DNA of 60,000 nt from Schmidtea polychroa (Eukaryota). Shown in pieces: positions 1 to 44,250 of this stretch. Each line of letters opens with the position of its first letter. Position 1 is the stretch's first letter. The stretch covers positions 26,352,001 through 26,412,000 of the forward strand of contig CM097885.1 of NCBI GenBank assembly GCA_044892525.1, given 5' to 3'. The notes under the pieces are model-generated. The model did not search any database and was not told the origin of the DNA. It worked only from the letters and a program-made list of their open reading frames with translations. A program made the position numbers and the translations under genes.

Positions 1-1828
1 CAATGGTAAAGAGCTTCTCTCAAATTTGGTCATAATTTTTTTATAATGATATTTAATGATGAAATTATTAGTATTTTTTAATGATATTTAAATTTTTATA
101 ATGATCTTAAGAGTAAAAATATTTTGAAATAAATATAAGGGGAAATCCCTCGCAAAAATTTGGTTTTTTGGTTTATCATCATGGATTTCAAGGGCCCAAA
201 TTTCTTTGTACAACATATACAACATACGAAATCATTCTCAGTACTAGAACACAAAATGAAACACCCTCGACAATGGTAAAGAGCTTCAAATCTCAGACAA
301 TCATAATTATCCATAGAAATAACAACAACTTTGAAATAGGTCTACGAAAGTGCGATATCTCAATTTATGTTTTCCCTGATGAAAATTTATTATGACATAA
401 TTCGAATAAAGCAAAAGAATTTCAAATTGATATCAATAATCACAGTTCACAATCATCAAAATACTCCGGTGAGAATGATCCTTCGTACTTTAAAATTGGG
501 ATAACAATAAGCAACCCATATCTTCATGGACAACAGAAGATATCTTAGAGTTTTATCTAGTCAAAGGGAAGATCTTGATATATACAAAATCCGAAATCAT
601 TCTCACTACTAGAACACAAAATAAATCACCCTCGACAATGGTAAAGAGCTTCAAACCTCAGACAATCATAAATATCCATAGAAATAACAAGTTTATAATA
701 GGTCTACAAAAGGGCGATATCTGGATTTATGATATTCCAGAAGGCATTTTTGTGAAGGTTTTCATCGGGAATTTCAAATTGATATCAATAATCAGATATA
801 AGGAATGGATGTTCTTAAGGCCTAAATGTATAGCCTTTTGAGTGATAAATAGAGCAACAAGGCTAGGGGAATAACATTGAACGTTACCGACTTAAAACAT
901 CAATCGTAATTTGATTGTTATCATAATAATTCGATGATTTCAATACCACAATCTCGAATAGTAAGTAATAATCATCAGTTATTTACAAAAAAATATATAA
1001 AATTAGCCCTAACTATTCTTGATGATAATAGGCATTGGGTAAATAAAAATGAAAGTTTAGCATATGGTCATTATGAAATAGTTAACATTTTTGTGAAGGT
1101 TTTCATGGGGAATTTCAAATTGATATATATCATTTTATTGTTTTATTATTATTATTATTCCAGCTGAATTATCTCTACGCCGGCTTTCTCTATAAGCTTC
1201 GGCATTTCCGTTTTTGGTTTATCATCATGGATTTCAAGGCCCCAAATTTCTTTGTACAACATATACAACATACGAAATAATTCTCACTACTAGAACATAA
1301 AATAAAGCACCCTCGACCATGGTAAAGAGCTTCATTGTCGATAAATATCCATAGAAATAACAACAAGTTTGAAATAGGTCTACAAAAGGGCGATATCTGG
1401 ATTTATGACTTACCAGAAAGCATTTTCGTGAAGGTTTTCCTCGGGAATTTCAAATTGATATCAATAATCACAGTTCACAATCAACAGGTTACACTTTCAT
1501 CTAAATCCTACGGTGAGAATGATTCTTCGTACTTAAATAATGGGATAACAATAAGGAACCCATATCTTCAGGGACAACAGAAGATATCTTAGAGTTTTAT
1601 CTAGTCAAATGGAAGATCTTGATATATACAACATACGAAATCATTCTCACTACTAGAGCACCCTCGACAATGGTAAAGAGCTTCAAACATCATACAATCA
1701 TAAATATCCATAGAAATAACAGCAAGTTTGAAATAGGTCTACAAAAGGGCGATATCTGGATTTATGATTTCCCAGAAGGCATTTTTGTGAAGGTTTTCAT
1801 CGGGAATTTCAAATTGATATCAATAATC

Positions 1829-2247
1829 AGATATAAGGAATGGGTGTTCTTAAGGCCTAAATGCTATAGCCTTTTGAGTGATAAAGAGAGCAACAAGGCT
1901 AAGGGAATAACATTGAAGGTTACCGACTTAAAACATCAATCGTAACTTGATTGTTATCATAATAATTCGATGATTTCAATACCACAATCTCGAATAGTAA
2001 GTAAAAATCATCAGTAATTTACAAAAAAATATATAAAATTAGCCCTAGGCATTGGGTAAATAAAAATGAAAGTTTAGCATATGGTCATTATGAAATAGTT
2101 AACACGGATATGGGTAATAGTAACAATGCTGAAGTTAATGATCCGGACGAAGATAATAATCAATATGTTAATCCACATTTCCCAAATGATGATTATGGCC
2201 ACTCACACTTTCCATATGAAAAGGAACATCAATATGTACTTGAATGA
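1829..2247 (+). pseudogene. Polinton pPolB C-terminal fragment (other copies at about 794-1085, 3512-3803, 4547-4984)
   Basis: RYKEWVFLRPKCYSLL..NKAKGITLK..IPQSRIVS.NHQLFT..KLALTNNDDNRHWVNKNESLAYGHY, colinear with the pPolB C-termini at 53140-53513 and 28143-28480. Confidence 0.85.
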
Positions 2248-2346
2248 ATTTTGAATTAAAATAAAATTTATTTAATATAATTATTGTTTTAGTTCTTACT
2301 TGTATCATTTGCATTTTATGTTGTTATTGTAAAGTATCCTTTAGAC

Positions 2347-2519
2347 CAGTGTTTCTCAAACTATGGGTCGCGATGACTTATGGAAAGATCTACAAATATA
2401 AATTTTGGAAGTTTAAGCCTTTTAAATTTATTTAATCTTTGTCATGTGGGTCGCAATAAAATTTTTGGCATGAAATGTCAAAAATTTGGGTCGTGATCAA
2501 AAAAGTTTGAGAACCACTG
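2347..2519. mobile_element. hAT-type MITE, 173 bp
   Basis: TIR cagtgtttctcaaact / agtttgagaaccactg (15/16); 8-bp TSD ctttagac at 2339-2346 and 2520-2527; empty site present in the second tandem unit (about 5076-5083). Confidence 0.95.
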
Positions 2520-5500
2520 CTTTAGACTATTTTATTGTGAAATAGTCAAAGTTTTTATTGTTGTGAACAATTTAGTTATTAAAAGGTTTTATCATTATTA
2601 TTATTATACAATTATTCAACAGATATCTTAGGTTTTTATCTAGTCAAATGGAAGATCTTGATATATACAACATCCGAAATCATTCTCACTACTAGAACAC
2701 AAAATAAAACACCTTCGACAATGGTAAAGAGCTTCTCTCAAATTTGGTCATAATTTTTTTATAATGATATTTAATGATGAAATTATTAGTATTTTTTAAT
2801 GATATTTAAATTTTTATAATGATCTTAAGAGTAAAAATATTTTGAAATAAATATAAGGGGAAATCCCTCGCAAAAATTTGGTTTTTTGGTTTATCATCAT
2901 GGATTTCAAGGGCCCAAATTTCTTTTTACAACATATACAACATACGAAATCATTCTCAGTACTAGAACACAAAATGAAACACCCTCGACAATGGTAAAGA
3001 GCTTCAAATCTCAGACAATCATAATTATCCATAGAAATAACAACAACTTTGAAATAGGTCTACGAAAGTGCGATATCTCAATTTATGTTTTCCCTGATGA
3101 AAATTTATTATGACATAATTCGAATAAAGCAAAAGAATTTCAAATTGATATCAATAATCACAGTTCACAATCATCAAAATACTCCGGTGAGAATGATCCT
3201 TCGTACTTTAAAATTGGGATAACAATAAGCAACCCATATCTTCATGGACAACAGAAGATATCTTAGAGTTTTATCTAGTCAAAGGGAAGATCTTGATATA
3301 TACAAAATCCGAAATCATTCTCACTACTAGAACACAAAATAAATCACCCTCGACAATGGTAAAGAGCTTCAAACCTCAGACAATCATAAATATCCATAGA
3401 AATAACAAGTTTATAATAGGTCTACAAAAGGGCGATATCTGGATTTATGATATTCCAGAAGGCATTTTTGTGAAGGTTTTCATCGGGAATTTCAAATTGA
3501 TATCAATAATCAGATATAAGGAATGGATGTTCTTAAGGCCTAAATGTATAGCCTTTTGAGTGATAAATAGAGCAACAAGGCTAGGGGAATAACATTGAAC
3601 GTTACCGACTTAAAACATCAATCGTAATTTGATTGTTATCATAATAATTCGATGATTTCAATACCACAATCTCGAATAGTAAGTAATAATCATCAGTTAT
3701 TTACAAAAAAATATATAAAATTAGCCCTAACTATTCTTGATGATAATAGGCATTGGGTAAATAAAAATGAAAGTTTAGCATATGGTCATTATGAAATAGT
3801 TAACATTTTTGTGAAGGTTTTCATGGGGAATTTCAAATTGATATATATCATTTTATTGTTTTATTATTATTATTATTCCAGCTGAATTATCTCTACGCCG
3901 GCTTTCTCTATAAGCTTCGGCATTTCCGTTTTTGGTTTATCATCATGGATTTCAAGGCCCCAAATTTCTTTGTACAACATATACAACATACGAAATAATT
4001 CTCACTACTAGAACATAAAATAAAGCACCCTCGACCATGGTAAAGAGCTTCATTGTCGATAAATATCCATAGAAATAACAACAAGTTTGAAATAGGTCTA
4101 CAAAAGGGCGATATCTGGATTTATGACTTACCAGAAAGCATTTTCGTGAAGGTTTTCCTCGGGAATTTCAAATTGATATCAATAATCACAGTTCACAATC
4201 AACAGGTTACACTTTCATCTAAATCCTACGGTGAGAATGATTCTTCGTACTTAAATAATGGGATAACAATAAGGAACCCATATCTTCAGGGACAACAGAA
4301 GATATCTTAGAGTTTTATCTAGTCAAATGGAAGATCTTGATATATACAACATACGAAATCATTCTCACTACTAGAGCACCCTCGACAATGGTAAAGAGCT
4401 TCAAACATCATACAATCATAAATATCCATAGAAATAACAGCAAGTTTGAAATAGGTCTACAAAAGGGCGATATCTGGATTTATGATTTCCCAGAAGGCAT
4501 TTTTGTGAAGGTTTTCATCGGGAATTTCAAATTGATATCAATAATCAGATATAAGGAATAGGTGTTCTTAAGGCCTAAATGCTATAGCATTTTGAGTGAC
4601 AAAGAGAGCAACAAGGCTAAGGGAATAACATTGAAGGTTACCGACTTAAAACATCAATCGTAACTTGATTGTTATCATAATAATTCGATGATTTCAATAC
4701 CACAATCTCGAATAGTAAGTAAAAATCATCAGTTATTTACAAAAAAATATATAAAATTAGCCCTAACTAATAATGATGATAATAGGCATTGGGTAAATAA
4801 AAATGAAAGTTTAGCATATGGTCATTATGAAATAGTTAACACGGATATGGGTAATAGTAACAATGCTGAAGTTAATGATCCGGACGAAGATAATAATCAA
4901 TATGTTAATCCACATTTCCCAAATGATGATTATGGCCACTCACACTTTCCATATGAAAGGGAACATCAATATGTACTTGAATGAATTTTGAATTAAAATA
5001 AAATTTATTTAATATAATTATTGTTTGAGTTCTTACTTGTATCATTTGCATTTTATGTTGTTATTGTAAAGTATCCTTTAGACTATTTTATTGTGAAATA
5101 GTCAAAGTTTTTATTGTTGTGAACAATTTAGTTATTAAAAGGTTTTATCATTATTATTATACAATTATTCAACAGATATCTTAGAGTTTTATCTAGTCAA
5201 AGGGAAGATCATGATATATACAACATCCGAAATCAAAAAACACAAAATGAAACACCTTCGACAATGGTAAAGAGCTTCAAACCTCAGACAATCATAAATA
5301 TCCATAGAAATAACAACAAGTTTGAAATAGGTCTACGAAAGTGCGAAGAAGTCATTAAAAAGGAAGTCATCTCCTCCGGTGAGATAGATCCTTCGTACTT
5401 TAAAGTTGCGAAATCAATAAGGAACATAAATCTTCATGGACAACAGAAGATATCTTAGAGTTTTATCTAGTCAAAGGAGAGATCTTGATATATAAAAAAT

Positions 5501-5766
5501 ACGAAATCATTCTCACTACTAGAACATAAAATAAAGCACCCTCGACAATGGTAAAGAGCTTCAAACATCAGACAATCATAAATATCCATAGAAATAACAA
5601 CAAGTTTGTGAAAGTTTTCATCGGGAATTTCAAATTGATATCAATAATAACAGTTCACAATCATTATGTTACACTTTCATCTATATCCTCCGGTGAGAAT
5701 GATCCTTCGTACTTTAAAATTGGGATAACAATAAGGAACCCATATCTTCAGGGACAACAGAGGATA

Positions 5767-21281: not shown

Positions 21282-21978
21282 ATGAAAGATTTTCTTCGAT
21301 TAAACAAAAAATCTTTTACAATAAAATTAACTAAACAACTTCCATCAGCATATCATTTATTCATCAAAAGTAATTATCCAGAAATAATTGAATCATATGA
21401 AATTTCATATCGAGGAACTTCATTTTGTTGGACATAAAAATGCTGTTGAAAGAGATATACATGAAATATTAAAAACTAATTTTTCAATGAATGTTTCAGG
21501 ACAACAATTTAAAGAATATAAAAATTCTAAAATTTGTTGGATGTGTAAACAATCTTTGAGTTCGAACCAGGGTTCGAGCTCATACAAAGTTATAGATCAT
21601 GATCATTTTAAAGAAGCAAATAATTATCGAGGTGCCGCTCATCAAAGTTGTAATTTAAATTGTAACAAACCAACAAAGATACCAGTTATATTTCATAATC
21701 TCTTTGGATATGATATTCATTTATTCATAAAACATTTGGCAATAAATGCAAAAAATACTTTTAAAGTTATTGGTTTGACAAAAGAAAAATATAAATGTGT
21801 GGAATATGGCTGCTTAAAATTTATAGATTCTATGAATTTCTTTGGTGGGAGTTTAGACTCGATTTCAAAAACAATGTCAACTGAAGGGTTTGAAAATACA
21901 ACAGAATATGTTTTACAGAAATATAATATTCCAATTGAAGAATATCCAACATGTTTAGCAAAAGGAATATATCCATAT
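21282..21978 (+). repeat. Inverted duplication of a pPolB segment (source about 26842-27558)
   Basis: ORF 21388-21987 is nearly identical to part of ORF 26383-28146 on the opposite strand, with a short deletion. Confidence 0.95.
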
Positions 21979-24967: not shown

Positions 24968-27900
24968 CTAATCAGAATCATCTTTTTCACAATCTTTATA
25001 AGAATCTTTGTAATCATCAGAATCGTAAAAATTAGAATTATAAGAATAATCATCATCATTATTTTCAACATCACTTTTATTATTATTTTCAAAAGAATTT
25101 GATGATAATATTTCATCATTATATAAATTTATGTAATAATCCAAGTTTTCAAATACATCAGATATTTTTTCATATTCTTGTCCCGGTTTCATTTTAGCAA
25201 CATCAACATCTGTATATTTTGTTTTCAATATTTTATTTATTTGTTTCAACTTGTTTATGATGGGAATCCTATCATTTCCAAATGGAAGTGTATGAATTCC
25301 ATCAGATAAAATAAATCTTTTATCATCATAATTATTTAATGAAGTTTTGTTTGATTCTTGCAATTCTAAATCATGATCAACAGATTTAATTTGATGAACT
25401 GTTACTATTTTTTTCTCTGAATTTGGTTCCAAAATATCAGCATAATCTTGATGTTAAATTTTTTTAGTTAGAGATTTTTGGATTCCTTTATTTTTATTTT
25501 CTTCAATTGTATCTGGAAAACTTGGATTTTCCATTTCAAGAGAATATTGTTTTGATCGAAAAAATATAAATTTAATTATTGGGTTTCTCATCTTTGAAAC
25601 TAAACAATTCCCCAGATGTATTTATTAAATTTCTCAATATTTCTTTATTAGATATTTCCTCATATATATCAGGAGAATAAACTCGCAAAAACATACTATC
25701 AGTATCCATTGCATGCAGTGATATTCTATCACCAAAATGTGGTACTAGGATATCATAATATGTTTCATACATTTGAAGTTTTGATAATTCTAAAATACTA
25801 TATCCAATAAACATTGGTTTATTATATGTTTTTTCATAATTTTCAGTTTCAACTGCAACTAAATTTTTTGAAAATACTTGTGCATTTTTAAATGTTGGTT
25901 TTGATATTATTCTGTTATATCTTGCAAAATCTTTTTTATTGTTTGTTAATAATTCAATCTTTGTATACTTGTCAATATTTTCCATGATTTTTCCAAATAC
26001 AGAATTATTTAATAATTTATAAATGGTATCTCCAAATGCATCTTTTGCTCTTTTACATTAATTTCTCTTTTTAATGTTGTCTTGAATATATTTTTTCATG
26101 AATGGTGCTTGTCTAAATTTTATAATATTATGAACTTGCTCAATTATAATTCCATGTCTAACATAAAATTGTAACATTCTATAACTTCTAGAAAATATCC
26201 AATATTTAATATTTTGTTTATTAATTGTACAAGTACTTGTACAATTAAAAACACAAAAAGAATATGAAATGGCAATGGAATACCTAGTCCATGCGAAATT
26301 TTATACATCGATGCAACTGCTTTATATGCAGGAATAATGACACAATATATCTGTATCTTTGAATAAAGTTCTATAAACATGTTTATAATTGAATACTTCT
26401 TTCACCCATGGAAGAACTAATCCCACTTCGAATATTATTTTTTATTATATTAAACATGTTGATGTCTGATAATAATTCTATACTTTGGTTCGAAATCAAA
26501 CCTTGGTTTGAGTTTGAATCTTGACTCGAACTCAAACCTTGATTCGAAATCATATAATATAATAACATATCCCATGCTAATGATGGTAGAGTTATATAAT
26601 TATAAGCTTTCAATGGAAAAGTTTTTACAAATTTTTCAAAACAATCAGCGAGAATATAAACACTTAAACTTAGATACATGTCTGTATATTCTCCTATATT
26701 TTTACAACTAAATAATTTCCACATTTTTCTAGCTCGAGCATATTCTTTTTCTGATATATTTGATTGATCTAATATTGAATAAAATTTTTCACGTAGTGGT
26801 AATTCTATTTCTTGATATCTATCGAATGAATCAATGTAATCATATGGATATATTCCTTTTGCTAAACATGTTGGATATTCTTCAATTGGACTATTATATT
26901 TCTGTAAAACATATTCTGTTGTATTTTCAAACCCTTCAGTTGACATTGTTTTTGAAATCGAGTCTAAACTCCCACCAAAGAAATTCATAGAATCTATAAA
27001 TTTTAAGCAGCCATATTCCACACATTTATATTTTTCTTTTGTCAAACCAATAACTTTAAAAGTATTTTTTGCATTTATTGCCAAATGTTTTATGAATAAA
27101 TGAATATCATATCCAAAGAGATTATGAAATATAACTGGTATCTTTGTTGGTTTGTTACAATTTAAATTACAACTTTGATGAGCGGCACCTCGATAATTAT
27201 TTGCTTCTTTAAAATGATCATGATCTATAACTTTGTATGAGCTCGGACCCTGGTTCGAACTCAAAGATTGTTTACACATCCAACAAATTTTAGAATTTTT
27301 ATATTCTTTAAATTGTTGTCCTGAAACATTCATTGAAAAATTAGTTTTTAATATTTCATGTATATCTCTTTCAACAGCATTTTTATGTCCAACAAAATGA
27401 TTTAAAGTATCTTCTGGAGAAGTTCCTCGATATGAAATTTCATATGATTCAATTATTTCTGGATAATTACTTTTGATGAATAAATGATATGCTGATGGAA
27501 GTTGTTTAGTTAATTTTATTGTAAAAGATTTTTTGTTTAATCTAAGAAAATCTTTCATTATTTCTATTTGGTTTGATTGAAATTCTTGATTCGAACTCAA
27601 ACCTTGATTGAATCTATAAACATACCAAGAATCTAATAATTTATTTTTTTCTGTAATATTCAAATATTCTCGTTCTAAATTTTGTGTTTTATTAATTGCT
27701 TCAAAATCCCCATAAATTGTAACAAGAGATTCTAATAAATTTGAATAATTTTTAAATTTCATTTCAAGATTCTCTGGCATTTTAATTAATGCTGGTTCAT
27801 TATCTTTACACAATCTATCGCGTTTAATTGTAACAGCTTTAGAAGTTGAATAATAAAGACATCTTTCACAAGTATGTCCTCGTACTCTATGGGAAGATGA

Positions 27901-35322: not shown

Positions 35323-35381
35323 AACATTACATTTTCGGCAAGATGCCCCTAGATATTTACCAGAGAAATGACAGTGGTCTC
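35323..35381 (-). pseudogene. 59-bp pPolB piece stranded between elements A and B
   Basis: Reads (R)DHCHFSGKYLGASCRKCNV, linking CYLCKKPIVNSVRD (42441 onward) to ARQIYRLLP (29988 downward). Confidence 0.92.
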
Positions 35382-36521
35382 TGTAGTGAGCCGTTACACG
35401 GCCTTAACAATATCTATATACCTATTATACTATATTATATTATATTATATTATATATAAATGCGCGGTCACCAACGAATAAGGACCAAACAGAACACAAG
35501 TATAGTCAATCAAAAGTCGTGCGATCAGCTAATACTTCTACTTATCAATCAGGCTCTATTAATCAATCTCAGACGAGTAAAGCAAATTCGATGCCATGTT
35601 ATCATTATCAAGATAAACTGTATTCGGCTCCCAATAGTTTTAGTGTTGGCTTTCATAGACCAACACCCTCATCCATTACAATTCGCGAAATACGGAACAA
35701 ATCCTAACAATAATATGAACCCGAAAAGATCTTTTTATCAAACCACCACACGTCTTTACAAATTCTGATCAAGGTGATAATGCAAAAAAGGATCAGAACG
35801 GCAAAGGATATACATTTCCTCAAATATTGTATGCGAATGACAATGGTCAAAATGGTTCATGGACAAATCGGCAGGCTGTAAAATCTTTAGAAATAATCGG
35901 ACTATATGAAATTATTATTTTTAGTTAACATTTTGTAAATGAGAAATGCCTGTTGAATATGTTTACCTGGTCTGATTATATTTACATTTTTTATATAGTT
36001 TCTATAATATATTTTTGTTTTACTTAAATAAGTGAAAATTGGAATTTAAATAAAAATTGTGTAAATCGAATTTATTATATAAATTGTCTGACTTTAAATT
36101 GAATTTAATTACTTTTCTTCTCAAATGATTTTAAAATTATTTACATTACTGATATTGTTAAATTTCATAACCTCGAACAAGGAGGAAGTATGTAAGGATA
36201 TTAATTCATCTGATGATAGGTATTCACAAATCGTGTTATTGAATCACTTTCCATTTGGTCTTGTTAATAAAACTAATATCATACAAAAGATAATCATGCT
36301 AGATGAGTGGGACGAATGTATTAAATATTGTTGTGACTACAAACAATGTGACGCGGTTTTGTTCAATACTACCCATTTTAAAATAATTCATTGCGAAAAT
36401 CCATCATTATGTCAGCCAGAAAAAAAAGAAAACTGAAGAATTATTTAGCGTTTTCTCGAATAATGGTCAAAGAAATGATTCTATTGCCAAATCACCAGAA
36501 AGGACTACGCCAACCACAACA
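35382..36521 (+). repeat. Inverted LTR copy, 1140 bp
   Basis: Reverse complement of 41301-42440; I saw one substitution (THFK vs THCK); TG..CA ends. Confidence 0.95.
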
Positions 36522-36522
36522 T

Positions 36523-36553
36523 TGGTGTCAGAAGTGGGATTTGAACCACGCCT
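36523..36553 (+). promoter_or_regulatory. Extended tRNA-Leu PBS copy (complement of about 31 nt of the tRNA 3' end incl. CCA)
   Basis: tggtgtcagaagtgggat-ttgaaccacgcct = complement of AGGCGTGG(G)TTCAAATCCCACTTCTGACACCA. Confidence 0.88.
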
Positions 36554-38722
36554 GTGTTGTTGACAACCGATGCACTGACTCACCCACAATTTAATATCGT
36601 GCCTCATTGCTGGCCAAACCACATGTGAATGCAATAGGTTGAAGGTAGCCGACGAACCTGGATGATGTAAGTCGTGAATGGAGTGGAAAGCTAATTTCCG
36701 TAAGGAATCGTGCAAAATCGGTCTTAAAACACCTGATAAAGACGAGTCAAAGTGTACTCCGTCCACGATTTCAAGCTTATCGCCAAAACAAGCTAGATCT
36801 TTTGCCGAAGGTGGATTGTCGCGGAGGCACTGTACTGGAAATATCGGATCGTGCAATATAGCGTTGGTGCTGCGGGAAAGACAGTCTGCAATAACGTTTT
36901 CTTTGCCGGCAATGTGGCGTATTTCGGAAGAAAATTCTGAAATATAACTGATTTGCCTCTGTTGTCGTGGAGATGGGTCTTTCATTCCAAAAAGATAAGT
37001 TAGCGGTTTGTGGTCAGTGTAGATGACAAAAGGACGACCTTCAAGCAAGTGCTTGAAATGTTTGATTGAAAGATATATGCCTAAGAGTTCTCGGTCGAAA
37101 GCCGAATATTTCCGTTGTGCGGAAGAAAGTTTCTTTGAGAAAAACTCTAAGGGTTCAGAAATGTCATTATGTAATTGGTGTAATACTGCACCAATAGCAA
37201 CGTTTGATGCATCAGTGGTCAGACTCCAAGGTAAATCAGCATTGGGAAAATGGAGTGTTTGAATTTTCGAAAGTGCCGACTTAGCGTTTTCAAATGCACT
37301 GAGTGTGGTATCGCCCCATGACACTAAAGACTTTTTTGGTTTTGAAACAAGACCTGAAAGAGGTGACAAAATGTCAGAAACCCCTGGAATAAAACGATGA
37401 CAATAGTTTATCGTTCCCAAAAAACTTCTCAGTTGTGAAACTGTTTTTGGAAGTGGGAATTTGGCTATGGTATCTAGTCTATCCGGAGGAGGTCGGATTC
37501 CATCTCCGGAAATTAAATGTCCCAGAAAACGAGTCTCGTGTTGGAAGAAGGTACACTTATCAACGTTTACCGTAAGGTTGTATTGCCGAAGTGCTGTTAA
37601 AGTTCTTGTCAGATGGGTTATATGCGTCTCTAAATCAGGTGATCCGATTAAAATGTCGTCTATGTAAGGAACTGCGAAAGGCAGGTCCATTAAGACTTGA
37701 TCAATATACCTTTGAAAGGTCTGTGCAGAATTACGAAGGCCAAATGGCATATGCACGTACTCGAAAAGTCCGATCGGAGTTATTACGGCTGTTTTTTCTA
37801 TGTCAGACTCTCGCACGGGTATCTGATGGTACGCCTTCACGAGGTCGATTGTGGAGAAAATCTTTGCCTTCGAAAGACGGTGAAGGATATCACTAACAAG
37901 CGGCATGCTATAGGAATCATGTACCGTAATAGCATTAAGGTTTCGATAGTCGCCACACGGACGGAAAGTGCCATCTTTTTTTGGGACCAGGTGCAATGGC
38001 GATGACCATGGAGATTTAGATCTCCGAATGGTACCCTCATGTAAAAGGTTAGTGAACTCGGAACGTACAAATTCGAGTTTTTCATTCGACAGTGGTCTAA
38101 TTTTGCATCTAACTGGTAAAGATGAAGTTGTGTCGATCGTGTGGCAGTAAAGCGGCTTCGAAACGTCACTTATTGGCGTGTTAAAACACCTATTAATAAT
38201 ATCTAAGGCTATTTTTGGGTATTCGATTGTTATAACCGTTTTCGACGGAGTAGTATTTATATCGTCCGTTCCTATCCGTTGTGGATCTTCAAAGATGTTT
38301 GAGGGAATAGTGCTGCAGTTTAATTGGTTATTTATCCTTAAAGTGCGTCCACGGCAATCTACAAGTAGTTCGTTAGCGCTTAAAAAATCAGATCCAAATA
38401 TGGGGATAATAACCTCTGCTATATAAAATTTCCACTCAAATAATTGGTCGCCCAGAAATGGCAACGAGAAAGCAATTGTCTTTGAACCTAAAGTCTCAAC
38501 AACACTACCGTTTGCGGCCTTCAAAGAAATATCGACAGTGTTGAGGTCTGGAAGGTACTCTTTAGGTAAGATCGACAAGCTGGAACCAGTGTCGACAAGG
38601 AATTTTAGTCTGTTGGAAGGAGACGACAATATATTAAAAGCGTTTGACTCTGCTTCTATTAAAAATAAATCTGATTTTGATGAAATTTTGCCTCCCACCT
38701 CTGCCGCTAGAAGTGGTGGCAT
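36554..38722 (-). CDS. pol: Gypsy pol: protease, RT, RNase H, start of integrase Zn-binding domain; integrase core absent
   Basis: FLVDTGS; SPWSSPLHLVPKKDG..DYRNLN; YIDDIL; TTDAS..YSAFDRELL..TDHKPL..NVIADCLSR; H..HHPG..CIGCQ; AAAAAAC -1 slippery site at the gag-pol overlap (about 38727-38734). Confidence 0.97.
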
Positions 38723-39990
38723 TATAAGTTTTTTTGATTGTTTGCTTTAGGTTTTGTGTAATTGGAGCAGCCTTCGAAGCATTTTAAGGCTTTATCTCCA
38801 AACCTGTCGTGGTATATACACTTGTCAAGTATCTGACAGGATGGTGCTTTGTCTCGCCAATTGCAACCTAGGTGGAAGAACCGTGCCTTGTTACGAAACT
38901 TAAAATGGAAACGGCACAGGTTCCTGGTTGCAGGTGAAGGTGAACGTTGACGAGTATTTTGCACAAAGTGTGATTTTTGGGCATATTGCCTGTCGTCATT
39001 TGTCCGCCTGGTGGACATGCTATTCTCAAGCTCGCTGATGCGTTTAGTGAGGCCTGTAATAGCGCAAAGTAAGGCTTCTTCGGTCGAAGGTTTTAAAGAA
39101 GAAGAAGAAGGTAAAATTTCGGGGTTAGTGCTGCTACTTAACTGCACAGAGCAAGTTGGTTGCGGACCAAGTTAATCTTGTCGGCCATCTTTGCTAGCTC
39201 TACCACGTCTGCTGTTGACGAAAGCGCTAAAATTTGTTGTGCGTGTGGCGGTAAAGCAGACAGAAAAAATTGCCTCAAGAGTTTTTGATCCGCCGCAGCC
39301 TCCGGATGTATTTGCGTTAGTTCCGCCATGGCGTGTTGCAAGAACTGTGATGGTTTCCTGCTGCCCAAAGTTTGCGTCTTAAAGTATTTAGTGAAGACGG
39401 CAGCTGTAGGTTCCTTAAAAATATCGAGGATTGCCGTACGCAATTCTTCATATGGGTTTTTTACGCTAGTAGGCGAAGTGCGAAGGATCACGGACGAAAG
39501 TTTACTTAATATCGTCGGCGGAATCAACGGTAAGATGCGACAGTATTTGTCTCGTGAACTGGTTACCTCGATTCCCTCGAGTGCTAGTTCGGTAGCTATC
39601 AGCCAAGTAAGTGGAGAGTTATTCTCATCCAAAAAATATTGACATAAGTACGTTGATCGCTGGTTGTTGGACCTACGTTTATGTTTTGCCTGTTTGGGGT
39701 TGCTGCCTGAGTCATTCTCCGAATCGGAGGAACCGCCAGAAAGTGGCAACAAACAATGAATGACGCTGTATGGTGTCACTCCATAGTCGCCCAAGGTACG
39801 ACTGTCGGAAAGGATGTTGCCGTTATACGACAAGAGAAAACGGCATTTGTGATTAGTCAATATGCTGTAATTTTTAGAAAGACCTTTAATTGTAGTGTCT
39901 GTGTCAACTGAAACGGTTTGTGTCTTATTTGTTCCAGGGTTTTCTATTAATATTTGGAACTTTTTGGGCCCCGGTGCGGTGCTACCCTCT
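38722..39990 (-). CDS. gag: Ubiquitin-like domain plus Gag (DUF7041/CsRn1-like), frameshift near 39140
   Basis: FQILIENPGTNKTQTVSVDTDTTIKGL..LSYNGNILSDSRTLGDYGV..IHCLLPLSGG; PLTWL..KY..PYEELRTAIL..LGSRKPSQFL..FLSALP..LAKMADKI; CRFHFKF..C and CIYHDRFGDKALKC..C. Confidence 0.9.
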
Positions 39991-41281
39991 CGTGTGGGCT
40001 GATGCTTATTTAAATAATTTATTATAATTTTATATATGATATCAATAATAATATAAATCAATAATAATATAGTATAATTTAATAATAATATAATAATATA
40101 ATTTAGAGGTAATCGATCTAAGGTACCTGGCGGTGCTGACACGGGCATTGCTTGATTGAGTCTCGATTCGCTGGGAGACGGTTTATTATCGTGAATAAAT
40201 GGCTGTCCCGGTGCACGAGAGTTTAATGTGAAAAAATCATTATTCTGTTGCATTAAGAATTCATTTGGATTTGGTCGAAGCATGATGCGTTGTGGGGCTG
40301 TGTATAAGACATCACTCGTTAGCAATTTGTTATTTGGTATATAATTGTTGATCGGAGTCATTTTTTTACGATTTTCAACGGCAATCATCTCAGCCAATGC
40401 TTGCCGGGAAACATTAATCGAATCAAAATCTATATCGGCTGTATCTTTATATTTCTGATCGTAATGTGAATTCGGTTTCTCCGAGCCAAATATGCGATTT
40501 ATATCCATTTCGTTTCGATCATGATACTGACCGTAGTTAAGCACACCGTTGTTGTTTGCCTGTTGATTGATGTTGTGATCGTATGACTGATTATTATTGT
40601 TGTTATTCTTGATTGCGGCGTGGTTTTGAGAATTTAACTGGCAGAAACTTTCCAGCAGAGAATTCGACGAACCAACTGAATTCAAACTGTTCATAAATGA
40701 TTTCTGATCTGAAAGCCGTGACAGGGGAGATGTGGAATTCAGTGTACTGTGGAATTCAGTAATATCATTACCAGCTGAGCTTTTGAAAGCACTGAATAGG
40801 GGAAATTCGGATTTAGTATCCGATGATTCAGATTGTAATTGAATACTTTTACTGATAAATTTGAAAGACGATTTATTTATCGGGTCAGCAATTTGAAATT
40901 GACCATTTGGAATATGATTATTATCTGTGATATTTGCAGGGGTCGAAATGGAATCACATAGAACGACTACGGGATCCAAAAAATCACGATCTGGAATTGT
41001 CTGAATTAATTTGATATACTCTTCTCGATTCGATGACAAACAACAGGAATGAGCAATTATCAAATGATCTATCAGCCTATATATATCATGGGATATAGGA
41101 TTAAATTTTGATGAAAGTTTTAATTCAGGAAATATTTTGGAAAGCGTATGGAACATATTTTGACGTAATTCCGCTGTTCGTTTATGAGAAACTAACATAG
41201 ATTGTATTTCCTGTAATCTGGATTTAGCAATTATATTAGCCGCTAAATAAGTTTCTAAATGTTCAAATCTTGAACATTGTT

Positions 41282-41299
41282 ATCCCACTTCTGACACCA
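41282..41299 (-). promoter_or_regulatory. Primer-binding site tRNA-Leu (18 nt)
   Basis: Minus strand ..ccacaaca t tggtgtcagaagtgggat. Confidence 0.92.
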
Positions 41300-41300
41300 A

Positions 41301-42440
41301 TGTTGTGGTTGGCGTAGTCCTTTCTGGTGATTTGGCAATAGAATCATTTCTTTGACCATTATTCGAGAAAACGCTAAATAATTCTTCAGTTTTCTTTTTT
41401 TTCTGGCTGACATAATGATGGATTTTCGCAATGAATTATTTTACAATGGGTAGTATTGAACAAAACCGCGTCACATTGTTTGTAGTCACAACAATATTTA
41501 ATACATTCGTCCCACTCATCTAGCATGATTATCTTTTGTATGATATTAGTTTTATTAACAAGACCAAATGGAAAGTGATTCAATAACACGATTTGTGAAT
41601 ACCTATCATCAGATGAATTAATATCCTTACATACTTCCTCCTTGTTCGAGGTTATGAAATTTAACAATATCAGTAATGTAAATAATTTTAAAATCATTTG
41701 AGAAGAAAAGTAATTAAATTCAATTTAAAGTCAGACAATTTATATAATAAATTCGATTTACACAATTTTTATTTAAATTCCAATTTTCACTTATTTAAGT
41801 AAAACAAAAATATATTATAGAAACTATATAAAAAATGTAAATATAATCAGACCAGGTAAACATATTCAACAGGCATTTCTCATTTACAAAATGTTAACTA
41901 AAAATAATAATTTCATATAGTCCGATTATTTCTAAAGATTTTACAGCCTGCCGATTTGTCCATGAACCATTTTGACCATTGTCATTCGCATACAATATTT
42001 GAGGAAATGTATATCCTTTGCCGTTCTGATCCTTTTTTGCATTATCACCTTGATCAGAATTTGTAAAGACGTGTGGTGGTTTGATAAAAAGATCTTTTCG
42101 GGTTCATATTATTGTTAGGATTTGTTCCGTATTTCGCGAATTGTAATGGATGAGGGTGTTGGTCTATGAAAGCCAACACTAAAACTATTGGGAGCCGAAT
42201 ACAGTTTATCTTGATAATGATAACATGGCATCGAATTTGCTTTACTCGTCTGAGATTGATTAATAGAGCCTGATTGATAAGTAGAAGTATTAGCTGATCG
42301 CACGACTTTTGATTGACTATACTTGTGTTCTGTTTGGTCCTTATTCGTTGGTGACCGCGCATTTATATATAATATAATATAATATAATATAGTATAATAG
42401 GTATATAGATATTGTTAAGGCCGTGTAACGGCTCACTACA
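41301..42440 (-). repeat. 5' LTR of element B, 1140 bp
   Basis: tgtagtg..cacaaca followed by the PBS. Confidence 0.9.
41386..41697 (-). CDS. Signal peptide plus MANSC/MANEC-like Cys domain inside the LTR (second copy 36125-36436 +)
   Basis: MILKLFTLLILLNFITS; C..CIKYCCDYKQCDAVLFNTTHCKIIHCENPSLCQP cysteine spacing. Confidence 0.7.
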   Translation of the reverse strand: MILKLFTLLILLNFITSNKEEVCKDINSSDDRYSQIVLLNHFPFGLVNKTNIIQKIIMLDEWDECIKYCCDYKQCDAVLFNTTHCKIIHCENPSLCQPEKKEN

Positions 42441-44250
42441 GTCTCTTACCGAATTTACTATAGGTTTTTTACATAAGTAGCAATTTCGACAAGATTTAAA
42501 CTGACGTTCCTCAATGAAAGACATCGGTCCTATCAACTTATTATCTTCCATATCATAATACGGTATCACAACAGTAGTAGCAATTTCCTCAACTTCAACT
42601 TCCTCAAAATCAGTAATACAGTCAAGGCCATAAAATTCAAAATATTGTTTAGTATTTTTATAATTTTTTATTAATAAAAGGCCTGCTGAACTAGGCATAT
42701 GAATTTGATGATGACGAGCATCAGGGATTAAAACCGACTCAAAATCGGCATAAATTACAAAAGGTGGTGTTATTGTTTTAGAAAAATTTTGAAAATCGAG
42801 ATTTTTATTTTAGGGTAAAGTTTAAAGGGTTGTTCCTGTCTGATTTTTGGCACATAATGCGACATGAATATTAAACGCGTTATCTAATCGGAACCCGTTA
42901 AGACAGTGTGGGCACCATTGACATCTTATTTTAACCTTACAGTCATGGTTCCGATGACAGTTCATTAGTCTATTGATATTGGTCACAGCAGTATAATGAT
43001 ATCGATCCTTATTTTCTAATAATAACAAATAAATTGAGTTTCCGCCAGTGACCTTAGATCGATGGATAAGACTTAAATGAGGATGGTGAAAGACATAATT
43101 ATCAGGGGTTTCATCGTCATCAATTATTATAGTTGGAGTGTATGAAAGCACATTAATGGCTAATTTTAAATTTATGTTTTTCTTTTCGAATTTAGGAATT
43201 TTGATTAATTTCATGGGACAATACGTGACTTCGTCATATTCACTCAAAAATTCAGTGTATTTAGATACTCTTTGAGGATTTTCACCTATTTGATCTTTCT
43301 TTAATAAGTAAAGAATGGAATACAGAAAGCATTTATCGTCGCTATTTTTGATGTTTAATATAGCTTTCTTATTTTTCAAGTCAGAAGGGGTTTTAATATA
43401 TTGATGTCCTGCCAAGCGACTAATTGGTTCATATTTAGTGATAATAAAATGTATCTCAAGAATATTGATAACGCGCCATCCACTGCCTGAATAGGTAAAT
43501 TGTTCTATATTTTCATTTAGTTTATGAACCCCTTCGTTTAAAAAGTCATCAGAAAATGTCGTTGCATTATTAGAAAAGTAATTTTTACGGATTTCACCAT
43601 CTTTTTCAAATCGAATTAATATCGCAAATTGAATTTTGACGCTCCCCATTTTATTAATTTCTTTTATTAATTTAGTTTTGATTTTATCTATTAAAATTAT
43701 TTTAATTAATTGCGCATCTGATACATCAAAACGTAGTCTTGATAGCGCCATTTAAATTTTCTAAGGAAGAACCTCCAAATTGAATCAAATCATTGTATAA
43801 TATCTACATTATTTATAATAGATATAATTTTATTATCTATAATATTTTCATTATTTATAATAGGTATAATTTCGTTATTTATAATATTTATAGAGTCATC
43901 ACTGATTTCGATGACTTCCTTTTTAATAATTTTATTAAGTACATCATTTTCCTTATTTTCAGCAGGTCTTTTATTTTCTGATGTTTTATTTTGTATAATA
44001 TTTAAAATATCACAGTTATTTTTATTAATTTCCATAAATAGGTCTTTTTTATTTAATTTAAAAGAATTGAAATGATTTGAATGTTCTCTAAAAAATTCTT
44101 TATATCTAACGCTCTGGGAAGTTTTGCATATGGAGCATATAAAAAAGTTGATGCCATTAAATTTATGCTTGTAATATTTTTTCATGTTTTTATAGCATGA
44201 AATACCATGACCGATTGACGACATGCAATATCTCGGGTAAAAAGAACCTG
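42441..44250 (-). pseudogene. pPolB of Polinton 1, 5' part
   Basis: GSGWRV, YIKTP..KKAILNIKNSDDKCFLYSIL, HY..V.NINRL, CPHCLNGF, PPFVIYADFESVL, CRNCYLCKK. Confidence 0.93.

Follow-up and report, generated by a model that had tools for sequence, protein, structure and literature searches.

Elements of the Ty3/Gypsy group, such as Ty3 of S. cerevisiae, are characterized by the gene order gag-PR-RT-RH-IN (PR, protease; RT, reverse transcriptase; RH, RNase H; IN, integrase), long terminal repeats (LTRs) of the TG...CA type, a primer binding site (PBS) for a tRNA, and a 5-bp target-site duplication. These features are shared by an insertion at positions 35382-42440 of a 60,000-nucleotide stretch of Schmidtea polychroa DNA (GenBank assembly GCA_044892525.1, contig CM097885.1, positions 26,352,001 to 26,412,000 of the forward strand; this whole stretch is called the window). 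The insertion differs from Ty3/Gypsy elements in its inverted LTRs, two PBSs, two U3 ends, and a tRNA read-through junction. Rather than being a canonical copy, it stems from a Gypsy family and has been rearranged. We consider it likely that a plus-strand strong-stop DNA was extended 14 nt too far into the tRNA-Leu primer and joined a template of opposite polarity, and that integrase then inserted the resulting cDNA with two U3 ends, which is a probable dead end.

Over-extended strong-stop DNAs have been described in related systems. In Ty1 and Ty3, plus-strand priming is repeated and dead-end strong-stop DNAs that copy the tRNA accumulate (PMC5371799). In HIV-1, the modified base m1A58 of the primer is the strong-stop site, and loss of the A58 stop allows synthesis to continue into the tRNA (PMC8599865). 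In the two papers, the over-extended products are described as non-integrated dead ends, whereas here they are integrated with duplications and in two cases flipped in polarity. Autointegration inversion circles are also aberrant cDNAs with an inverted segment made in the particle (PMC7197481). This explanation was rejected, because the circle junctions start at an LTR end made by integrase, whereas the junction here lies past the PBS within the tRNA and the product is integrated.

Inverted termini are known from two further systems. DIRS elements bear RT and have inverted terminal repeats, as stated in PMC7192593. They were rejected as an explanation of the window copy, since no tyrosine recombinase was matched by Pfam in the three internal ORFs scanned and no internal complementary region was present among the BLAST and repeat matches. 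Moreover, the arms are nearly identical rather than non-identical, the duplication is of the integrase type, and the parents have direct LTRs. Ginger1 combines a Gypsy-type integrase with TGT termini and inverted repeats; a Gypsy origin has been proposed by a chain of events described as unclear, and the suggestion was made that two LTRs flanked an integrase in opposite orientation by chance (PMC2836005). The same paper gives Ginger1 terminal inverted repeats (TIRs) of 40-270 bp, a 4-bp CCGG/CCGT duplication, no RT, and multiple copies. The inverted Gypsy insertions differ in having LTR arms of 0.9-1.2 kb (1159 nt in the window), 5-bp duplications, an RT, and single copies. Ginger1 was rejected for the window copy in view of the presence of RT, the absence of the DDE core, the length of the arms, the 5-bp GTCTC duplication, and a junction that is single-copy in this assembly. 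A second inverted insertion, described below, is closer to Ginger1 in that an integrase ORF lies between perfect inverted termini, with both RT and the integrase core present.

Full-text literature searches, judged from titles and beginnings of abstracts and with older subscription virology outside their range, found no description of a Gypsy element or retrovirus integrated with a U3 end on both sides. Retroviral DNA extended into the tRNA has reportedly been described in that older virology literature.

Structure of the inverted insertion

The insertion is bounded by an inverted repeat whose arms span 35382-36540 and 41282-42440. Each arm consists of a 1140-bp LTR, a 1-nt spacer, and an 18-nt PBS, with the LTRs facing inward and both element termini of the TG...CA type with U3 outward. 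The features of the element and its target site are as follows.

35377..35381, no strand: left target-site duplication, GTCTC
35382..36521, + strand: left LTR, 1140 bp, U3 end outward; probably an over-extended plus-strand strong-stop DNA
36523..36540, + strand: left PBS, 18 nt, complement of the 3' end of mature tRNA-Leu(CAA) including CCA
36541..36553, + strand: tRNA read-through, covering A58 to C48 and part of the variable arm, with one base missing from a run of C
36553..38746, - strand: pol with protease motif, RT, RNase H, and integrase H2C2 finger (Pfam RVT_1, RT_RNaseH, Integrase_H2C2); stops at the polarity switch
38722..41279, - strand: gag region with two ORFs (39138-41279 and 38722-39171), a hydrophobic stretch, a ubiquitin-like domain, and a DUF7041-like domain
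41282..41299, - strand: right PBS, 18 nt matching the tRNA
41301..42440, - strand: right LTR, the normal 5' LTR of the element, U3 end outward
42441..42445, no strand: right target-site duplication, GTCTC

A first-pass annotation, made from the letters of the window, had described inward-facing, near-identical 1140-bp LTRs, each with a PBS. This description is accurate to the base, as the two LTRs align without gaps and with one mismatch (position 36378), and the arms are 99.9% identical. Two private variants are common to both LTR arms and absent from 12 other LTR copies, which indicates that both arms come from one template. The single mismatch over 1159 nt points to an insertion of recent date.

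The target site was examined by means of paralogues of the flanking sequence, 39 of which are listed besides the window's own locus. Eleven were fetched; all are uninterrupted and contain a single GTCTC, and their sequence runs on into the right flank of the window. At a fixed place, this 5-mer would occur by chance with a probability of approximately 5e-4. Thus, the perfect 5-bp duplication that had been reported is real. It had also been claimed that an interrupted polymerase frame (pPolB) reads through on both sides, with VRD before and HCHFSG after the element. This is supported by one paralogue, whose frame is VRDHCHFSG across the insertion site; on the left side, the match to the polymerase-like flank is limited to 60 nt (to 35323).

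The Gypsy-type order PR-RT-RH-IN was found by Pfam in the window copy and in a relative, and Ty3 RT was the best of 13 PDB matches (E 1.8e-90). The placement in Gypsy uses the Pfam domain order and this PDB match. From 36553 to its right end, the window copy matches the 5' portion of its direct-LTR relatives at 98-99% identity. The comparison covered four distinct loci, of which one recurs on a duplicate contig and one is split by an insertion. The relatives continue for ~1.37 kb through the rve integrase core to the 3' LTR, and their polypurine tract (PPT) is short and weak. The window copy breaks off at the end of the H2C2 zinc finger, lacks this ~1.37 kb of the parent's internal region, and has no integrase core, PPT, or 3' LTR. 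The reported loss of these parts was therefore confirmed, and direct-LTR relatives with the integrase core, by which the annotation had proposed to identify the parent, exist. Exact or near-exact 5-bp duplications are present at most of the relatives and solo LTRs that were checked. The LTR start has 264 exact matches; in the first 100 of these, 22 close pairs (<15 kb) were counted by eye, of which 21 are direct and one, the window copy, is inverted.

The tRNA read-through junction

The sequence past the left PBS does not enter the leader of the element. Instead, positions 36541-36553 are complementary to the 14 nucleotides that come next in tRNA-Leu(CAA), and the chance of a 12-mer tRNA match is approximately 8e-9. 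The last read-through base (36553) is common to the minus strand of the element, which amounts to a microhomology of 1 nt at the switch. Directly after it, the minus strand starts in the integrase zinc finger and extends back as far as the 5' LTR. The tRNA continuation agrees with the tRNA-Leu(CAA) genes of this genome, and all three of the gene loci that were read are without CCA. Since CCA is present at the junction, the stretch was most likely copied from a mature tRNA. The CCA-bearing junction pattern occurs at two places genome-wide, the other being in a different Gypsy family. If up to one mismatch is allowed, the tRNA-Leu stretch itself has 2257 genomic matches, those listed being mostly in tandem arrays. 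A tandem array at G000:C2:74.62-74.70 Mb (L054-L064), with a period of ~734 bp, contains genes for tRNA-Gln, tRNA-Gly, and an intron-bearing tRNA-Leu(CAA); the Leu(CAA) identity was read by eye, and ARAGORN gave no name.

The right PBS matches the tRNA over 18 nt, compared to 14 nt in 5/5 relatives (one locus being represented twice among them), and the final 4 nt of this PBS thus appear to be tRNA-templated. The first-pass annotation had recognized the structure with two U3 ends but overlooked the tRNA read-through, the tRNA-templated right PBS, and the recurrence in other families.

Recurrence in other elements

The second CCA-bearing junction (G000:C4:67065466) is in a different Gypsy family on another chromosome and belongs to an inverted insertion of the same anatomy.

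G000:C4:67064600-67071965 (L066:601-7966): second Gypsy insertion with inverted LTRs; the junction contains a tRNA read-through, the duplication is GTATC, and the integrase core is present

Here, the LTR and PBS are followed by a tRNA extension that ends at the same tRNA base as that of the window copy. After the extension comes the minus strand of nearly the whole element, which starts 16-19 nt inward of the 3' LTR end and reaches the 5' LTR, with a microhomology of 3 nt at the switch. The pol gene retains the rve core. The outer arms match each other at 100% over 879 nt, and GTATC, duplicated at the insertion, is single (an empty site) in 8/8 paralogues fetched. The tRNA match of its right PBS is limited to 12 nt, and the same holds for two relatives; therefore, the long left PBS did not come from element RNA. 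All 34 exact matches to the LTR start of this family comprise nine direct pairs, one tandem array, singles, and the one inverted case. Both inverted insertions lie inside multi-copy sequence adjoining polymerase-like ORFs. A lone LTR of the second family (L133:1591-2591, on G000:C1 at 145.0 Mb) flips polarity within 1 nt of the U5 switch position of the second insertion, and this position may be a natural stall site or an RNA 3' end.

A further genome-wide search used a general pattern, an LTR-end CA followed by the complements of CCA and of a T arm, with the reversed pattern as a control. It gave 40 matches, compared to 28 for the control. Sorting left 15 of the 40, with four double listings and 20 matches without tRNA-like sequence set aside. 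The remaining match, on a small contig, resembles a CCA-encoding bacterial-type tRNA gene. By inspection, the 15 distinct places consist of an LTR end, a PBS, and a tRNA T arm, of tRNA-Leu in 11 cases and of other tRNAs in four (two doubtful). A looser tRNA-Leu pattern found nine places, all among those already known. A pattern of the initiator-Met type gave 313 matches, and two unrelated repeats dominate among the first 100, which were listed.

The tRNA numbering and the presumed m1A58 and m1G37 modifications are taken from general tRNA biology. In the 11 tRNA-Leu read-throughs, the base opposite A58 is T in three, A in three, C in four, and G in one, so that 8/11 are misread, whereas the neighbouring and equally unconstrained position 59 is misread in one. 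Three extensions stop at positions 39-38, beside G37, and one goes slightly further. These A58 misreads and the stops beside position 37 are consistent with a reverse transcriptase that passes m1A58 and is blocked at m1G37.

Duplications of 5 bp were found at seven of the 15 places: the two inverted insertions, three elements in which the LTRs are direct and a tRNA insert is present, and two mini-elements. In the mini-elements, the extension rejoins the U5 end, giving an LTR, a PBS, a tRNA read-through, and a short U5 end.

Near G000:C2:108875832: mini-element L109, 5-bp duplication GTGAT
Near G000:C2:158862605: mini-element L120, 5-bp duplication ATAGT

Therefore, the read-through error recurs in this genome.

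Proposed mechanism and points against it

The simplest reading is that one template and two tRNA-copying strong-stop DNAs are combined in one cDNA. In this mechanism, plus-strand synthesis would have proceeded past A58 and copied a mature, modified tRNA. The 3' end of the read-through product would no longer have matched the PBS, which would have prevented the normal second-strand transfer. The over-extended end may have been rescued through a microhomology of 1-3 nt, whether it primed on genomic RNA or captured a stalled plus strand; both routes would lead to the same product. A jump in the same polarity would produce a direct-LTR element with a tRNA insert, and a join in the opposite polarity would produce two U3 ends. 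A second strong-stop DNA presumably supplied the other U3 end by ordinary PBS transfer, and the four tRNA-type bases of the right PBS, which the relatives lack, would be its visible trace. Integrase would then have accepted both U3 ends, each ending in CA-3'; the termini are of the TG...CA type and the duplication has the 5-bp length typical of the family. The truncation most likely occurred during reverse transcription of a full-length RNA.

This was foreseen in part. Insertion of a cDNA with two U3 ends in one integrase event is supported by the TG...CA-type termini and the one target site with its GTCTC duplication, and a one-off aberrant reverse-transcription product, one of two options previously given, by the single-copy junction and the direct LTRs of the relatives. 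The proposal that integrase was supplied in trans is not needed, because the particle of a full-length RNA would supply its own integrase, the relatives encoding the rve core. The window copy is without a PPT or a direct R repeat; hence, it would not retrotranspose by the normal route and is probably a dead end. Overall, the inverted insertion is best described as a recurrent, probably dead-end replication error.

Several observations weigh against this mechanism. According to PMC8599865, HIV-1 DNA that runs past position 54 can neither be transferred nor be integrated. The base opposite A58 is the correct T in both inverted cases, so modification of those two primers is not shown. Predicted pairing between the 3' end and the switch site is weak (-7.0 kcal/mol over many short stems) and the microhomology is 1 nt here and 3 nt in the second case, which leaves the choice of switch site unexplained. 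Only two of the 15 read-through places are inverted, and eight are not delimited within the 10-20 kb read. A third element (L141:3766-5666, on G000:C1 at 9.81 Mb) has 191-nt inverted arms, two U3-type ends, and a GTAGT duplication without an evident tRNA extension; read-through is thus not the sole route to two U3-type ends. Finally, no public contig piece among those listed (contigs of 4 of the 21 listed runs) bridges 36540-36553. The listed pieces show loose ends of the empty-site type and the parent-type continuation into integrase, and they differ from the window at many places; a further 129 loose ends and 3964 pieces lie outside the lists. One search of the public runs listed none of RNA, a result that has no bearing on expression.

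Alternative explanations

An over-extended strong-stop duplex and a broken cDNA could have been end-joined by host repair before integration, with no strand switch of RT. The product would look identical, and the junction has a microhomology of only 1 nt. This scenario requires a free double-stranded U3 end on the strong-stop piece, which normal reverse transcription does not yield. In addition, other read-throughs rejoin in the same polarity and in register with the element, as RT jumps do. We regard end-joining as improbable.

A rearrangement after integration is very unlikely. Here, the 3' part of a direct-LTR insertion would have been replaced by an inverted strong-stop cDNA during break repair, and the TGT with which both U3 and U5 termini start might have served as microhomology. 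The replacement would have to end exactly at the boundary of the duplication in two families and in the third element, and the private variants common to both arms also argue against it.

We give the same slight weight to an assembly artefact, that is, a fold-back chimeric read or a misjoin. The near-identity of the arms and the unbridged junction among the listed contig pieces would suit it. A fold-back would mirror the flank too, whereas here the flanks together make up a single empty site. The arms are set apart by one base, the CCA-bearing tRNA junction is present at two places only, and the second case is independent, with a duplication of its own.

The first-pass annotation had also offered a propagating inverted-LTR or TIR-like derivative. 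Perfect long inverted termini with a duplication, and the integrase ORF kept in the second case, are what such an element would have. Each junction is single-copy in the assembly, however, the only other genomic match to the pattern being in another family, and the relatives have direct LTRs. The pair counts, 21/22 direct in the window family (first 100 of 264 matches) and nine direct pairs, one tandem array, and one inverted case among all 34 matches in the second, make propagation hardly credible.

The fusion of two independent insertions of opposite orientation by a later deletion would yield inward-facing LTR-PBS units and has been proposed in general form for Ginger TIRs (PMC2836005), but its probability is close to negligible: it is largely refuted by the single target site, from which both flanks derive with one duplication, the arms share private variants, and the tRNA extension would be left unexplained.

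Other features of the locus

The LTR of the window copy contains a short ORF, and the flanks belong to a multi-copy sequence.

36098..36436, + strand (mirror copy 41386-41724, - strand): short ORF in the LTR, with a signal-peptide-like start and a KIAA0319_N/PAN-like cysteine domain
35323..35381, - strand: left flank, piece of the interrupted multi-copy polymerase-encoding sequence, 60 nt, 100% identical to 11/11 paralogues
42441..43880, - strand: right flank, rest of the interrupted polymerase-encoding repeat; most of the 11 paralogues match it at 93-96% over 0.9-1.5 kb, and in two the match is split into pieces

The Pfam score of the KIAA0319_N/PAN-like domain is under the curated cut-off in the window and over it in the L031 copy. 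In two relatives (L031 and L032), the LTR ORF forms part of a longer ORF that extends into the gag region. The same LTR termini as in the window family were found at L113 (G000:C2:141.85 Mb) and L111 (C2:135.94 Mb), where the LTRs are 376 bp and 146 bp; compared to these, the 1140-bp LTR looks enlarged by added sequence. In the flank paralogue L122, the next same-strand ORF has a Pfam match to DNA_pol_B_2, and we take the flank polymerase to be a Polinton/Maverick-type protein-primed DNA polymerase. Elsewhere in the window, a 700-bp inverted duplication of a polymerase-like piece (21282-21978 and 26842-27558, 99-100% identical) is not an LTR, and a near-perfect direct duplication of 2718 bp, composed of shorter sub-repeats, occupies 1-5600.

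Implications

As a single dead copy, the window insertion probably has little effect on its host. These elements are integrated products of a step that is usually taken as a dead end, namely plus-strand synthesis overshooting the tRNA stop. If the proposed mechanism is true, integrase accepts two U3 ends in vivo. The genome would also serve as a fossil record of primer modification, in the form of A58 misreads and stops beside position 37. Furthermore, an LTR end followed by a CCA-bearing tRNA complement beyond 18 nt is a signature that can be searched for in any assembly. Standard LTR finders look for direct repeats, and inverted copies would be missed or mislabelled as TIR elements.

Inverted events place opposed LTRs around an integrase in one replication cycle, and the second insertion, which has kept its integrase gene, already resembles a TIR-integrase (Ginger-like) DNA transposon in layout. 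It is conceivable, if doubtful, that read-through was the one-step route to inverted U3 termini accepted by integrase and thereby the missing chain of events for Ginger1, and that the inward-facing LTRs make a putative hairpin RNA that silences the parent. Set beside the chance arrangement suggested in the Ginger paper (PMC2836005), read-through is a testable alternative for how LTRs could become TIRs.

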